Assembly: GCF_024223415.1 (NCBI RefSeq)
Contig: NZ_CP100502.1
Origin: Escherichia coli
Lineage (GTDB): Bacteria > Pseudomonadota > Gammaproteobacteria > Enterobacterales > Enterobacteriaceae
Direction: 5' to 3' (one strand)
DNA: 64,000 nucleotides
This document shows positions 9,479 through 60,692 of this stretch, piece by piece. The notes beneath the pieces are model-generated. The model searched no databases, had not been told where the DNA came from, and saw only the letters and a list, made by a program, of their open reading frames with translations. A program made the position numbers and the translations under genes. The first letter of the stretch is position 1; every line of letters begins with the position of its first letter.

Positions 9479-11770
9479 TCAGTACATTCCGTCCCAGTCC
9501 GGACGGTTGGTTTTTTTATGATGAAACCCGTTTACAGGACGCCCTGTCGGGTGGTTATTGTCCTGTGGAAGCGTTAACAGGTTTATACCTGCTCTTTCTG
9601 CTCTCACTGATATCTGATTTTCCTCTTTTGTTTCAGGTAGTTCTGGTCTGTTCAGCGTGATATAGCGAATTCGTCGCTCTTCCCGTGTGGTCGTTTTAAG
9701 CGTATTCACCGCTGTTTCCCACAAGGCACTTTCACGTGCGTTGATATCTGTGTCGTACTCTTCCAGCATTGCCATAGCCGCCTGACGTCCTGCAATGCGT
9801 TGCTGGAATGTATCCACGATCGTGTGCGGCTCTGTGCGAATTTTTCGTCTTTTTCTGGAGGGTTTTGCAGTCAGGACGCCAATGATGGCACTGACATTTT
9901 CCGGTGACGGTATTCGACGTTGAGTAGTACGGGGAACAAGACGGCGGAGACGGTCCAGGCGTGGCGCATCCACGCTGATATACCTGTTTATAACAACGGG
10001 ATCGCTGCTGCAGCTTTTCTCATCGTCAGGGATGAAGAATGATGCTGATGGTACGGTTTCTCCCCGGAAAATAGAAAAGAACTCGCCAGGATGAAGTTCA
10101 ATCAACTCCTGAACATTTATCTTGCTTTCCATCAGGATGCTGATTTGTGGGCTGTCAATCCATGATTCACCAAATATGCCGTCCTGACGCTGCAGGTTGT
10201 TCATTCTCGCCCTGGCTTCTTCACCGGCGGCGCTTTTCAGCGTTCTGGCCGTACTACCCTCGCTGACAATCCTGCCGGCAAATTTTGTCCCCGTGTTCTG
10301 CATCAGTGTTGCAGTATTCGTGGCTGTTGTCTGTCCTTCTATACGTTCCTGGTCCTGTGCCATCAAAATCAGAGCAAAATCCAGTGAACGCACCTGAGTG
10401 GCTTCCACAGCAATACGGTCCGTATAGTATGCCCCCACTTCATCAAGGAAACACAGATAAGGGAAACGCCCCTTATATTTTTTGACTTCCAGTGCATCGG
10501 AATCAGTTCCTTCGAGGCGGTAGCCCAAATCACGGGCGAGAATCATACTTTTCTGGGTGATAAACATTCGTCCAAGAGCAGACGTTGTATGCGCTGATGT
10601 ATCCAGAGCGGGGATCATTACCATCAGAATCCTGTCGCTGTGAATGCTGTCACGGATATCGATATCACCGGAATCTTCAGCAAAAATATCCCCGAATGCT
10701 TCCGTGAATGTGCTGAAAGTTTCAGAAAACTGCCCGGAGAGATAAGCATGTTGTTTTCTGGGTTCTTCCGTCCAGGCTGATGGTGTCCTGACCAGCGACA
10801 GGTCGAAACCGGGAACGTCCTGAAGGTAGTTACGTAACGGTGCGATAGCTTCTTCCGGCCACTGATCATCGAGGCCACGACAGTAAAGTTTGGCCATCCC
10901 TTCGAGAGTCATATGTTCACGGAGCATCTGCAGCGACATTGTTTTGCCTTCGCGCACACACCAGAATTTAGTACCAAATACTAGTGCCTTATTCATGGCA
11001 ATGGCCCGGGACTGCCACTCGCCCCCCTGGACGTTCTGGGGCAGCATTGACTGCATTGTCTCCGCTGTGAATGCCTCAGTGCTGTAACAGAAGGGATTCC
11101 AGGTATTTGACTGAGGACGCGTTTTTTCACCACTCAGAATGATTTCACTGCGGGATTTTCCTCCGTTCATGAAGTTAATGACTTCCACATCGTCTTCACG
11201 TCCAAAGCGTCTGGCCAGATACCAGATCGTTCTTGCCGTATCATTCTGTGCCTTGCCATCGACAAGGGTGAATCCTCTTGCCCAGCAAAGTGGGTTAATC
11301 GCCCAGGCAAAGATGGTTTCCGTTTTACCGCCACCGGTGGTGGCGAAAAACATTATATGGCGGGTCAGATCGTCCATACTCAGCCATAACTCCCTGCCAA
11401 TATCCCTGACGCGTTGATAACCAACATAGAATATGCCGCTGGCCGGTGATTCCAGAATGACCTCATACTGGAACAGGGTTGGCCAGAAGCTGAAAAGACT
11501 TCTTTTAATCATTCTGTCCTGTGACGGGTCAGCACATTCCAGCGTCATGGGCATACGAAGAGGGCAGCGCCATCGCTGCAGACTAAATACCAGCATTGTT
11601 ATCAGTGTGAACAACAGACATGCCGGTAATGCAAGTGGCCAGATAAAACTGGCCACAAGACTTGCCACCAGGCAAAAGCCATAGATATTGAGACTCTGGA
11701 GTGCATTCCAGACAGGATTTCCCCAGGCTGTACGGTGTAAAAGCTCGGGGTTAACGCGATGTTCACTCAT
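9479..11770 (-). CDS. trbC: TrbC, DotL/IcmO-like type IV coupling ATPase, 763 aa
   Basis: Walker A FFATTGGGKTE; N-terminal transmembrane segments; length and position match R64 trbC. Confidence 0.8.
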   Translation of the reverse strand: MSEHRVNPELLHRTAWGNPVWNALQSLNIYGFCLVASLVASFIWPLALPACLLFTLITMLVFSLQRWRCPLRMPMTLECADPSQDRMIKRSLFSFWPTLFQYEVILESPASGIFYVGYQRVRDIGRELWLSMDDLTRHIMFFATTGGGKTETIFAWAINPLCWARGFTLVDGKAQNDTARTIWYLARRFGREDDVEVINFMNGGKSRSEIILSGEKTRPQSNTWNPFCYSTEAFTAETMQSMLPQNVQGGEWQSRAIAMNKALVFGTKFWCVREGKTMSLQMLREHMTLEGMAKLYCRGLDDQWPEEAIAPLRNYLQDVPGFDLSLVRTPSAWTEEPRKQHAYLSGQFSETFSTFTEAFGDIFAEDSGDIDIRDSIHSDRILMVMIPALDTSAHTTSALGRMFITQKSMILARDLGYRLEGTDSDALEVKKYKGRFPYLCFLDEVGAYYTDRIAVEATQVRSLDFALILMAQDQERIEGQTTATNTATLMQNTGTKFAGRIVSEGSTARTLKSAAGEEARARMNNLQRQDGIFGESWIDSPQISILMESKINVQELIELHPGEFFSIFRGETVPSASFFIPDDEKSCSSDPVVINRYISVDAPRLDRLRRLVPRTTQRRIPSPENVSAIIGVLTAKPSRKRRKIRTEPHTIVDTFQQRIAGRQAAMAMLEEYDTDINARESALWETAVNTLKTTTREERRIRYITLNRPELPETKEENQISVRAERAGINLLTLPQDNNHPTGRPVNGFHHKKTNRPDWDGMY

Positions 11771-56952: not shown

Positions 56953-57390
56953 TTAGTTAACGTAGACGACAGAACCAGCAGTAATGCCTGCCGGGGGTGT
57001 CAGACCGGTTGCAGTTCCTGATAGCCAGGTGAGTTGCCCGTTTTGGAAGATCCCTATTAGTGCAGAACCACGACTTTTTGAACGCAAAGTTTCAACAAGA
57101 CCTGGTTGTTCAGGCATCCATACCCACAGACGCCCCTGTTGTAACTGATGTTTAATTCGGGAGTCCGGAGTGACAGGGAGAGCCAGTTTATCTGAGGAAA
57201 TTACTCCGTCCTGCTGGCCTGATACGTATCTGATATCATTGATTCTGTTAGCAATCATTAGTATCTGACTTGCCCATACAGACGCACTTGCATATTGCTG
57301 GGCGTTTGTGGTTTCAGACATCTTCTGATTCTGGTAGCTACCAGTGATAATCAGAATGGTCAGGCCGACGGCCATGACCAGCCATCCCAT
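56953..57390 (-). CDS. pilM: PilM, 145 aa
   Basis: Signal-anchor; positional. Confidence 0.6.
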   Translation of the reverse strand: MGWLVMAVGLTILIITGSYQNQKMSETTNAQQYASASVWASQILMIANRINDIRYVSGQQDGVISSDKLALPVTPDSRIKHQLQQGRLWVWMPEQPGLVETLRSKSRGSALIGIFQNGQLTWLSGTATGLTPPAGITAGSVVYVN

Positions 57391-58457
57391 TAGCGACCAT
57401 CCCTTGTATCAGAAACTGTAATGATGCACTGCATGCGAGAAGCCTGTGCGTATAAAGGTTTTTGCGCAGTCCGATATAACTCAAATACCTGCTCCATGGC
57501 TGATTCAAATGATCCCCGGAACATTAAAGGCGCATCCAGACGGTAATCGGTTACAGAAAGTGGCCATATGACCATCCAGTGCGTTGATGCCATGCTTTCG
57601 CATTTTGTTTCTTCTGCCCACTTGATAATGTTCTCTCTTAATGTGGTGCCTGCCGGCGCACGCCACTCTTTACCCTGAGATACCGGTTTAACAGGCGTTC
57701 CGGTCATGAGCGGGATAGACTTGACTGTGGAGCCGGTTGGAGTCGGGGTGGCGGCGGGCGTTGACGAAGATACGCTGTTTCCCCTGAATGGATTTCGTGG
57801 TTTGTTTTGGCTATTTGCTGTCGTTGGAGATTCAGGGTAAGTGGATGTGGTTACCATGGCTGCTGGCGAGATAGTGGTTGCCGTGTCCTGTGCCGGTGCA
57901 GCAGCTGATGTTGTGACGGTCAACGTTTTATTATTCCAGTCCAGATGGCCCCAGAGGTGTTGTTCTTCCAGCAACCGGTTCAGAGAACGGGTCCACTGAT
58001 CATTGGCAGACCATGAAACCAGTTTGGTATTCAGCTTGGGCGTGGCTGCATTCTCTTGTCTGAATTTCCATCCTTCCGGTAGTAATGTTTTTATCCACTG
58101 ACTGACGGTCCGGTTACGGGCCGTCGGCGATAGTGTTACAGGGGCGCTACCAGGCTTGCCTGTAATGATTAACCGGGAGAAATTCTGACTTATTGTTGGT
58201 GAAGGTAACGGTCGGGATTCGCTAACAGGCTGTGCTGTTTTTACTGTCTCTGGCACGCTGACTCTCGGGGGGGGAGTTATTTTAGGTGGAGAAAGACGTT
58301 GTTGCGTAAGTGCCAGAACGCCAGCACTTTCACTGATTTGTCCGTCAACAAAAACCAGAGCAGGCGTATCTGATGGTGCCACGTTATTGCTGCCGGAAAT
58401 TCCGGCACAGCCGGACAATAATGACGGCAGTATAAGTGTCAGACAGTTTTTTTTCAT
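57390..58457 (-). CDS. pilL: PilL lipoprotein, 355 aa
   Basis: Lipobox LLSGC; Pro/Thr-rich linker. Confidence 0.7.
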   Translation of the reverse strand: MKKNCLTLILPSLLSGCAGISGSNNVAPSDTPALVFVDGQISESAGVLALTQQRLSPPKITPPPRVSVPETVKTAQPVSESRPLPSPTISQNFSRLIITGKPGSAPVTLSPTARNRTVSQWIKTLLPEGWKFRQENAATPKLNTKLVSWSANDQWTRSLNRLLEEQHLWGHLDWNNKTLTVTTSAAAPAQDTATTISPAAMVTTSTYPESPTTANSQNKPRNPFRGNSVSSSTPAATPTPTGSTVKSIPLMTGTPVKPVSQGKEWRAPAGTTLRENIIKWAEETKCESMASTHWMVIWPLSVTDYRLDAPLMFRGSFESAMEQVFELYRTAQKPLYAQASRMQCIITVSDTRDGR

Positions 58458-58490
58458 AACGGAGACTCCGTGTTCGTATATACGTGTTTG

Positions 58491-59084
58491 TTAATTGGTG
58501 TGAGGCGGCTGGAGAGGACGAATGACGACTGTCATTCCGTCCGAATGCAAATGCGGGAAAGACCACTGAAATAAGAGATATATAAAAGGAATTGATAATT
58601 TTTCGTACAGACTTGTTTTCCGTGGGTATGTAATAACTGAAAAACTCAAATCATAAGATTCCAGTCTCTTTATAAGTTTATTTATTCTTGCTGGAGTAAA
58701 GAGATGTGAATGCATGACAATGATTTCATCATTATTAATTGCTTTTGATATCAGAGAAAGCAATACATCCCAGTGTTTCCTCATTGACTTCGGGCAACGT
58801 GTGTCAGCATAGGGGCTAAGATGTATAGTTGATTTCTTGCTTCCCTTTTTCTTCTTCACAAAGAATGTGAAGTCGTATTTAGATGCAGACCTTACAATAA
58901 GAAGTACACATCTGAAAAGTAGTGGGAAAATGCAAATCACAACCACCACACAGAAATATAACATATAAGGCAATGATAAGTTGTCAGTGTATGGATAACG
59001 TAAGTATTGCCATGGGGTAGTGATGTACAGACAAAGCGTACACCAAAGCAACCATAGATATAATGGTACGTTATTATTTTTCAT
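58491..59084 (-). CDS. pilK: PilK-like membrane protein, 197 aa
   Basis: ORF track; AT-rich; positional. Confidence 0.5.
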   Translation of the reverse strand: MKNNNVPLYLWLLWCTLCLYITTPWQYLRYPYTDNLSLPYMLYFCVVVVICIFPLLFRCVLLIVRSASKYDFTFFVKKKKGSKKSTIHLSPYADTRCPKSMRKHWDVLLSLISKAINNDEIIVMHSHLFTPARINKLIKRLESYDLSFSVITYPRKTSLYEKLSIPFIYLLFQWSFPHLHSDGMTVVIRPLQPPHTN

Positions 59085-59377
59085 ATTAGTTGACTTTTAA
59101 TACTGTTTTCTATCACCACATTTTTATGTGTCTCATTTGGCACTTCGTACTGTTGGAAATATTGTTGGCGGCGGATGCGTGTCTGTTCACTGCTTTCTAT
59201 TAACACCGCCATGGCGATTGCAAAGTATATGCAAATCAGGAAAATCCAGAACGCGTTTGGTATCTTCCAAAAAAGTGTGGACAGTTTGTTATGTGGTGAA
59301 GCTAAAATCGGAGAAAGGATTCCACAGACAATCACAATCGCGATGGTTAATTTAACTAGAAAGAACATGGTAAACAT
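59081..59377 (-). CDS. pilJ: PilJ-like small membrane protein, 98 aa from ATG 59377 (ORF track extends to TTG 59434)
   Basis: SD ggaga upstream of the ATG; hydrophobic N-terminus. Confidence 0.5.
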   Translation of the reverse strand: MFTMFFLVKLTIAIVIVCGILSPILASPHNKLSTLFWKIPNAFWIFLICIYFAIAMAVLIESSEQTRIRRQQYFQQYEVPNETHKNVVIENSIKSQLI

Positions 59378-59552
59378 CGTTAATCTCCATGATAAAAGGG
59401 AGAGAGGTAATAAAGAAAATAAAGATGGCAACAAACGGCTAAATTAAAATCGTTAAAAGGTGTACACAGACAATCGCAATCGCGATGGTAAATTTAACTA
59501 AAAAGAACACGGCCCCCACCTGTTTTGACGAGGTCTTTTGTTTTTGTTGTGT

Positions 59553-59807
59553 TTACGACAGCCAGTCCTGTAGATGCTGATGGCGGGAGCTGCTGCCCTT
59601 GTGCCAGCGGCAGTGGCTGCCGGGAGCACGCTCCAGTCGGAACAGAAATCGGTTGTCGCGTAGTACCACCACGAGACAGTTATCCGGCGTGCAGAAACGT
59701 CGGGCAAGCTCATCGGGGTCTGTCGGTGTTTTCGTTGAAAACAGCCTGCGTTTGCAGTGTGCGTCGACGACCAGTATTTGCAGTCGTCCGGGATGTTGCT
59801 GTGGCAT
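59553..59807 (-). CDS. pilI: PilI-like protein, 84 aa
   Basis: Internal ATG 59807 with strong SD aaggag; first gene of the pil operon. Confidence 0.6.
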   Translation of the reverse strand: MPQQHPGRLQILVVDAHCKRRLFSTKTPTDPDELARRFCTPDNCLVVVLRDNRFLFRLERAPGSHCRWHKGSSSRHQHLQDWLS

Positions 59808-59867
59808 CAAAGACTCCTTCCGGAACGGGAAAAGAAGCAGCTGTACCGTCATAACTGCACGTACCGG

Positions 59868-59956
59868 TTGCGAAAAAACGGCACAAGCGAGTAGTGACAG
59901 AAAGAATGTCGGAAACGGCAGGAAGGGCGGTACAGGCTGCGAAGACGGGAAACGGG
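59868..59956. repeat. ~88-bp direct repeat, copy 1 (upstream of pilI)
   Basis: About 95% identical to 60581-60670. Confidence 0.85.
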
Positions 59957-59968
59957 TTGTGTTGGGAA

Positions 59969-60520
59969 TTAACGCACGTGAGGTGTGATGAGAACGACGC
60001 GCTTTTCGCCAGCTCCGTCTCCGGTGAATCCATTCACGACAAGGGACTGTTCCGGTCTGAGAGAAATGCTTTGTTCAACAGTCTGTTTTCGTTTCTGGTC
60101 TGTGGTCGAGAGTCGCAGAGTGATATTTCCGGGCGCACCGTGAATATCCGGTGATACCTGCATTCTGACACCGGGAGAGACATCTGCAGTGAAGGTATCC
60201 GGACCTACGGACGTTACCAGTGATTCAACACAGGGCGTATTCTGTATCATCCCGTGGAGCGTTTCAGGTGTCAGCGTCAGGCTGTCATTAAAAAATGCAC
60301 TGCGTGAAATACTCCCCTGAGCACCGGCAAACAGGTCCGGATGGCGCTCATTAAGAAGGCTTCCGTATTTTTCCGCCAGGCAGATTGGGTTGCTGGCCGT
60401 TGTGTCTGTTCGCACGGTATCGACCGTGAATGTCACCTGCGGGTGATGTTCCCTGTGGCCTGTGCAGCCGGACAGCAGTGCGGCGGCTATCGTCATCCAG
60501 AGTAGTGGTTGTTTTTTCAT
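59969..60520 (-). CDS. Lipoprotein, 183 aa (R64 traD position)
   Basis: Lipobox LLSGC; ORF track. Confidence 0.6.
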   Translation of the reverse strand: MKKQPLLWMTIAAALLSGCTGHREHHPQVTFTVDTVRTDTTASNPICLAEKYGSLLNERHPDLFAGAQGSISRSAFFNDSLTLTPETLHGMIQNTPCVESLVTSVGPDTFTADVSPGVRMQVSPDIHGAPGNITLRLSTTDQKRKQTVEQSISLRPEQSLVVNGFTGDGAGEKRVVLITPHVR

Positions 60521-60580
60521 GCTGTTAATTTCCTCTCAGGGTAAAAAGAAAGACTCGCACCGTCATGTCGATGGGGGCCG

Positions 60581-60670
60581 CTTGCGAAAAAATGGCACAA
60601 GCGAGTAGTGACAGAAAGAATGTCGGAAACGGCAGGAAGGGCGGTACAGGCTGCGAAGACTGGAAACGGG
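60581..60670. repeat. ~88-bp direct repeat, copy 2 (upstream of the lipoprotein gene)
   Basis: See 59868-59956. Confidence 0.85.
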
Positions 60671-60692
60671 GTATGCCGGGGATTACACATCC

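Follow-up and report, generated by a model that had tools for sequence, protein, structure and literature searches.

What is the short direct repeat at the 5′ end of pilJ, and does the small open reading frame (ORF) encoded by its upstream copy have a function? In the 64,000-nt stretch of Escherichia coli DNA analyzed here (the window), part of the pilJ coding sequence recurs ahead of the gene, and the initial annotation read the ORF in that recurring copy either as a duplication scar or as a small leader or membrane peptide. Our comparison with other IncI plasmids indicates that this mini-ORF is most probably a gene remnant without function, left in an old recombination scar; we hold the exact history of the scar with less confidence.

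A repeat search of the window extended the 48-bp partial duplication of the pilJ 5′ coding segment, as first reported, to a direct repeat of 68 nt with 85% identity and a start-to-start spacing of 142 nt. We refer to the upstream copy as copy A, the copy within pilJ as copy B, and the 74 nt between them as spacer Y (Table 1). The 48-nt core of the repeat in copy B (59323–59370) matches 59465–59512 with exactly four mismatches, confirming the reported mismatch count; the interval originally given for the second copy (59464–59511) is one base off, and in that register 34 mismatches are found. The expected chance number of direct 48-nt matches with four mismatches in the 64-kb window is about 5e-13, or about 3e-12 with the local composition taken into account, and the repeat is therefore no coincidence. 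The location of the upstream copy between pilI and pilJ likewise holds, as does the 23-codon ORF on the sense strand, which starts at a GTG and encodes the hydrophobic, helix-length peptide VFFLVKFTIAIAIVCVHLLTILI. An in-frame GTG further upstream at 59519 gives a 26-codon version of the same ORF. The mini-ORF reads copy A in the frame of pilJ and stops two codons into spacer Y. Every pil gene here lies on the minus strand, and the pil names and coordinates were taken from GenBank records that are 100% identical to the window interval.

Table 1. Features of the pilI–pilL region of the window, listed in the direction of transcription of the pil genes.
Feature	Position	Strand	Basis or remark
pilI, 84 aa	59553–59807	−	Upstream neighbor; Pfam PF10623 PilI, E = 2.9e-32; GenBank annotation
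Degraded ancestral Shine-Dalgarno site, GGTGGGGG	59513–59520	−	R64 has GGAGGGG; alignment with R64 and L004
Copy A, orphaned original 5′ end of pilJ, about 22 first codons	59445–59512	−	Alignment to the pilJ start of R64 and L004
Mini-ORF, 23 codons, then TAG	59439–59510	−	GTG 59510–59508, TAG 59441–59439
Spacer Y, 74 nt of IncI2-like DNA between the copies	59371–59444	−	blastn, 87% identity to IncI2 plasmids over 59373–59442/59448
Remnant frame in Y, C-terminal 20 codons of the IncI2-type small membrane ORF, no start codon	59380–59442	−	Three-frame translation
9-bp tandem repeat in Y, TCTTTATTT TCTTTATTA	59408–59425	−	One unit in ColIb-P9-type plasmids
Imported ribosome-binding site and start codon (GGAG, 7 nt, ATG 59377–59375)	59375–59388	−	Aligns base for base with GGAGATTAGCCATG of IncI2 nfeD
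pilJ, ColIb-P9 allele, 98 aa	59081–59377	−	C-terminally truncated relative to R64 PilJ (150 aa); TGA overlaps the pilK ATG
Copy B, 5′ coding segment of the current pilJ	59303–59370	−	Ancestral ACC ATG kept; repeat search and alignment
pilK, 197 aa	58491–59084	−	Downstream neighbor; annotation in CP043738.1 and ColIb-P9
pilL	57390–58457	−	Annotation

Alignment with R64 and L004 revealed which of the two copies is the older. Copy A occupies the position of the R64 pilJ start, behind the same conserved pilI–pilJ intergenic sequence and Shine-Dalgarno (SD) site, and the aligned pilJ starts read ...CAAAACAGGAGGGGACCATGTCG in R64 and ...CAAAACAGGTGGGGGCCGTGTTC in the window. Since copy A coincides with the R64 pilJ start behind the same spacer, it represents the original gene start, and the additional 142 nt lie downstream of it. 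The start and SD region of copy A has degraded from GGAGGGGACCATG to GGTGGGGGCCGTG, and copy A carries GCC GTG where both R64 and copy B have ACC ATG.

Spacer Y resembles neither the sequence following copy B nor the sequence preceding copy A. A blastn search of 72,556 PLSDB plasmids placed it in just two contexts, namely the IncI1 copy A–Y–copy B structure and IncI2 plasmids, where 70 nt align at 87% identity. The IncI2 counterpart (LC712384, locus L005, positions 2501–2570 of that locus) comprises the last 20 codons of an 84-residue hydrophobic membrane ORF, its stop codon, and the GGAG-N7-ATG of nfeD. The gene that follows the 84-residue ORF in IncI2 is a true NfeD (PF01957, 1.1e-8), situated downstream of an SPFH/qmcA gene. 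The frame of the donor is still readable in Y, as LAVCCHLYFLYYLSPFYHGD followed by a stop in the window and LAVCYHLYYLYSLSAFYHGD followed by a stop in IncI2, with the first 64 codons missing. tblastn retrieved the full 84-residue ORF only from IncI2 plasmids, plus one window-type fragment (L014). As the small ORF is intact only in IncI2, where a true NfeD gene follows it, the IncI1 fragment is the derived one, which gives the direction of the transfer. The 9-bp unit within the spacer occurs twice in the window and in IncI2 and once in ColIb-P9, and two units are probably the older state because IncI2 also has two.

The SPFH (qmcA)/84-residue ORF/NfeD operon spans positions 1215–3009 of L005. 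The small ORF also occurs in IncI2 as a second allele with a protein identity of just ~52–55%, and a metagenomic IncI2 variant (L037, around 9570–9793) is without the small ORF and retains only the nfeD ribosome-binding part of the patch.

Neither a donor closer than 87% nor a plasmid carrying the patch without copy A was found in PLSDB, the GTDB representative genomes, or the JGI/ENA metagenomes. An exact 19-mer scan of the GTDB representative genomes returned seven matches in unrelated taxa (Lachnospiraceae, Muribaculum, and archaeal MAGs), which we take as chance, about two being expected by our own estimate for a 19-mer in 298 Gb. The same scan of metagenomes returned 15 IncI1 A–Y–B loci and nine IncI2 loci, and no new context.

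The 98-residue pilJ of the window thus starts on foreign DNA: its GenBank/RefSeq start codon is the imported ATG at 59377, which aligns to the ATG of IncI2 nfeD. The old pilJ ATG is located three codons past the imported one, in the context ACC ATG as in R64. The similarity to IncI2 is confined to this 74-nt fragment of the qmcA/84-residue ORF/nfeD operon; beyond the ATG, DNA similarity of the PilJ region to IncI2 falls to background level, and PilJ is no NfeD protein. A reading of PilJ as a diverged NfeD was rejected, as neither R64-type nor window PilJ matched PF01957 and the comparison with IncI2 NfeD gave a BLASTP E-value of 0.08. The window and R64 genes share the operon position, the upstream spacer, and a homologous N-terminal stretch of 90 residues, whereas R64 pilJ has no duplication, follows a 42-nt spacer with its ATG behind GGAGGGG, and encodes 52 extra C-terminal residues. 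The loss of these ~52 codons together with the pilJ–pilK spacer of R64 explains the overlap of the pilJ stop with the pilK start (ATGA) and is a second rearrangement in the same small gene.

We compared the pilI–pilK interval among IncI1-type plasmids and distinguished at least five forms: (a) the R64 type (NC_005014.1; CP024854), with a 42-nt spacer ending in GGAGGGG ACC ATG, a 150-residue pilJ, and no duplication; (b) the L008 type (LT985248), with a pilJ of 109 residues carrying internal deletions; (c) CP060875 (L009) and the pESBL plasmid, in which pilJ is almost wholly deleted; (d) the window and ColIb-P9 (NC_002122.1), with the 98-residue pilJ and the additional 142 nt; and (e) the L007 type (CP155669 and at least 30 other records), with a 98-residue pilJ starting from GTG and without the 142 nt. 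Spacer Y was absent from the alignments of the R64-type, L007-type, L008, and L009 plasmids. About 297 PLSDB records carry the window spacer at ≥99% identity, and roughly 170 more are estimated to carry the ColIb-P9 form (the 80–90% identity band minus the IncI2 records). The comparison with other IncI pil operons, which the initial annotation had proposed, found the duplication in ColIb-P9 and in several hundred IncI1 plasmids.

Because pilJ is internally deleted in form (b) and nearly gone in form (c), it is a naturally variable and dispensable gene. It is also absent from the IncI2 plasmid TP114, whose thin pilus works without pilI, pilJ, and pilK. Yoshida et al. (1999) reportedly found twelve of the 14 R64 pil genes to be required for the thin pilus, pilI and pilJ being the exceptions. 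The structure in the window is an ordinary one, found also in the classic plasmid ColIb-P9, with copy A, spacer, and copy B at the same locus and of the same sequence, in a dispensable and highly variable part of the IncI1 thin-pilus operon.

Parts of this variation have been described. Beside pilJ, pil regions of the ColIb-P9 type contain an insert (given as 60 bp) that is missing from R64, and some IncI1 plasmids of S. Typhimurium (Cluster A) have a 9-bp tandem repeat inside this insert (PMC8004404). The window corresponds to the variant with two 9-bp units that was described for the Cluster A plasmids. The structure is thus already known as an insert with a 9-bp polymorphism; no account of a pilJ start duplicated over 68 nt on either side of an IncI2-derived patch was found in the searchable literature, and this detail is the sole new element. 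A recombination point near pilJ–pilK, attributed in the same paper to Sampei et al. (PMC8004404), fits the pattern of pilK alleles: pilK occurs as two alleles of 594 and 591 nt that are ~10% divergent (window compared with L004, L007, L011, and L012), and the 98-residue pilJ is joined to either of them, which places a recombination breakpoint at the pilJ/pilK boundary. The type 1 pilK also stands beside a different pilJ remnant in L009, so the pilK alleles reassort independently. Ordering the events by the flanking genes was consequently abandoned, being confounded by recombination.

The order of events can be approached from the repeat itself. Over its 68 nt, with the ColIb-P9 version of copy A, we counted nine differences between copies A and B, 12 between copy A and R64, and eight between copy B and R64, corresponding to branch lengths of 6.5 substitutions for copy A, 2.5 for copy B, and 5.5 for R64. 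By this measure, copy A has diverged roughly threefold more than the live copy. Seven copy-A-specific differences fall in its 3′ half, six of them in two clusters of three, and these clusters fit poorly with a simple drift by point mutations. At repeat sites 3 and 12, the L007-type plasmids (at least 30 records) agree with copy A, and at sites 37–60 with copy B; the switch falls in a run of 24 nt, TAGTTAAATTAACCATCGCGATTG, over which copies A and B of ColIb-P9 do not differ. A switch inside such an identical run points to a single homologous crossover between the two copies that deletes 142 nt. The L007-type lineage thus appears to have lost the 142 nt by this crossover, inheriting the degraded GTG start.

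From the anatomy of the locus, its homologies, and its distribution among plasmids, we infer the following order of events and mechanism of rearrangement. The ancestor would have been R64-like, with pilI, a 42-nt spacer containing the GGAGGGG site, and then ACC ATG of pilJ. An illegitimate recombination or repair event would have placed 142 nt inside the start of pilJ, made up of 74 nt from an IncI2-type plasmid and, after these, a repeat of the 68 nt with which pilJ begins. It is plausible that the filler DNA was captured from a co-resident IncI2-like plasmid during the repair of a staggered break; microhomologies at the junctions are at most short (TTTAAT on the left, ATGTT/TTTAC on the right), and small additional indels are needed to fit them. 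The gene would then have carried on from the downstream copy by means of the imported GGAG-ATG, adding Met-Phe-Thr ahead of the old Met, while the 22 codons that had originally opened the gene stayed behind at the old ribosome-binding site and, with a stop two codons into the foreign patch, became the 23-codon mini-ORF. The stranded copy presumably drifted afterward, from ATG to GTG and from GGAGGGG to GGTGGGGG, accumulating ~6.5 substitutions while the live copy accumulated 2.5. The two copies would remain a substrate for homologous deletion, of which the L007 type is an apparent case.

The features of a scar are indeed present: one copy retains the ancestral position and context, the spacer is of other origin and represents a truncated piece of another gene, close relatives (R64-type, L007-type, L008, and L009 alleles) are without the structure, and the affected gene is variable. 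The foreign spacer, the ancestral position of copy A, and the patchy distribution among plasmids all support the scar among the two possibilities first raised for this locus. The term duplication stands as far as the repeat is concerned, but its polarity and kind need revision: the upstream copy is the original start and the in-gene copy the displaced one, and with an IncI2-like spacer between them, this is not a simple duplication.

Of the other histories, an import of the downstream region from a donor plasmid survives best, although we consider it unlikely. Here, the GTG form of the L007 type would be ancestral, and the window form would have arisen from an unsampled donor with the arrangement small ORF–pilJ (98 residues, ATG)–pilK type 1, through an illegitimate left crossover at codon 23 of the resident pilJ and a homologous right crossover in or beyond pilK. 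The junction from the spacer to copy B does resemble a native stop-SD-ATG gene junction, and the pilK alleles of the window form and the L007 type are ~10% apart, which would follow from an import of all sequence to the right of the junction. However, the independent reassortment of pilK seen in L009 weakens the latter argument, and the required donor lineage is absent from every collection searched. Such an import also demands that the 3′ 37 nt took all seven copy-A-specific substitutions while the 5′ 31 nt and the 55 nt of spacer remained free of them, a pattern that a crossover between copies A and B explains directly, and it needs two reversions to the R64 state or else a donor that has not been found.

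A second alternative leaves the history aside and assigns a function to the mini-ORF, either as a leader peptide that tunes the translation of pilJ and pilK or as a small membrane peptide with a role of its own. The ORF does have an SD-like sequence (GGTGGGGG) and a GTG at proper spacing, the GTG being accepted by PGAP as the pilJ start in the L007 type; its product is hydrophobic and of helix length, and hardly any of the sampled copies has lost the reading frame. The mini-ORF is, however, absent from the R64-type, L007-type, L008-type, and pilJ-less IncI1 plasmids with an otherwise same operon, its start codon and SD site are degraded relative to the ancestor, and pilJ itself is dispensable in nature. 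Between its TAG and the ATG of pilJ, which has a strong SD (GGAG) of its own, lie 61 nt, and both the 9-bp indel next to it and a frameshift in one copy have been tolerated. Searches for regulatory elements were negative as well. No alternative RNA structures were found, and the fold of the 221-nt sense transcript gave z = +1.2, and 179 of 200 shuffled sequences reached an equal or better fold; at 59300–59560, neither strand showed a promoter-like site and no terminator-like site was found, and Rfam yielded no match at E ≤ 1. A functional mini-ORF is therefore, in our judgment, quite improbable, and the proposed leader or membrane peptide found no support, given the absence of the structure from R64-type, pilJ-less, and copy-A/copy-B-recombinant IncI1 plasmids.

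Among the 15 metagenomic copies and the plasmids read, we found one nonsynonymous variant (TTA to TTT, Leu to Phe, the latter being the state in the window), two synonymous variants, and one frameshift, which are too few for an estimate of selection or for a demonstration that constraint is lacking. The frameshift is a single-base deletion (ACCAT-GCGATT) in copy A of the human gut metagenome contig OQIG01000078.1 and may be an assembly error, as the coverage of this contig is only ~3x.

Individual functional classes were also considered and rejected. Leader ORFs of IncI1 plasmids, such as repY upstream of repZ, and classical attenuators resemble the mini-ORF in being short ORFs upstream of a gene within an operon. 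Leaders of this kind are conserved throughout their relatives, and overlap or a defined RNA structure couples them to the downstream start. The mini-ORF, in contrast, has no overlap, no structure, and a patchy presence: a regulatory leader or attenuator is at odds with the 61-nt gap, which leaves no coupling, with the lack of an RNA structure or terminator, and with the absence of the ORF from the pilJ-bearing R64-type and L007-type plasmids. A type I toxin-like peptide of the Hok/Ldr/Ibs kind would also be a short hydrophobic ORF, but no promoter was found at 59300–59560 and no Rfam match was obtained. A programmed +1 frameshift of the prfB kind that joins the mini-ORF to pilJ does not suit the stop context (ACG ATT TTA ATT TAG C), upstream of which no SD-like element is found; the linker of such a fusion would be read outside the coding frame of the donor, and slippery or stimulatory signals are lacking.

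Most likely, the mini-ORF has no function. It retains a usable SD-like site and a GTG and may still be translated, at most at a low level and into a short, inconsequential hydrophobic peptide. We give very little credence to a more consequential outcome, in which the old ribosome-binding site still drives a 23-residue transmembrane-like peptide that matters or the 68-nt copies act as a recombinational switch. The peptide would in that event act on the thin-pilus assembly proteins in the membrane, and the switch would toggle pilJ between the strong imported GGAG-ATG and the weak degraded GTG; the co-existence of A–Y–B and L007-type plasmids might suggest the latter.

A plain 142-nt tandem duplication in situ by replication slippage, with the spacer as diverged pilJ or intergenic sequence, would account for two direct copies on the same strand 142 nt apart but is scarcely credible and was rejected, because the spacer is unlike both flanks and is 87% identical to IncI2 DNA with the frame of the IncI2 ORF kept.

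With the mini-ORF regarded as a remnant in a recombination scar, the locus carries little biological weight, since pilJ is reportedly not required for the thin pilus, many IncI1 plasmids lack it or carry a shortened version, and the decades-old ColIb-P9 reference already contains the scar. In the typing of IncI1 resistance plasmids, it can serve as a stable marker to tell ColIb-P9-type, R64-type, and recombinant pil regions apart, and it records that IncI1-type and IncI2-type plasmids have exchanged DNA in the past. It also offers a small example of a gene start rebuilt with a ribosome-binding site captured from another plasmid family. For annotation, the start of the 98-residue pilJ should be treated as chimeric, and no gene should be called at the small upstream ORF.

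Two further observations concern the surroundings of this locus. The window contains a second direct repeat of 108 nt with 93% identity (59864–59971 and 60578–60685); each of its copies occupies an intergenic region, directly ahead of pilI in one case and of a 183-residue trcD-like gene (59969–60520) in the other, as read on the minus (sense) strand. This repeat may be a duplicated regulatory region that arrived with trcD; R64 has traD in place of the trcD-like gene. In LC567060.1, an otherwise identical plasmid, an IS2 element (annotated insA/insD) is inserted in the interval that matches 58400–60600 of the window.
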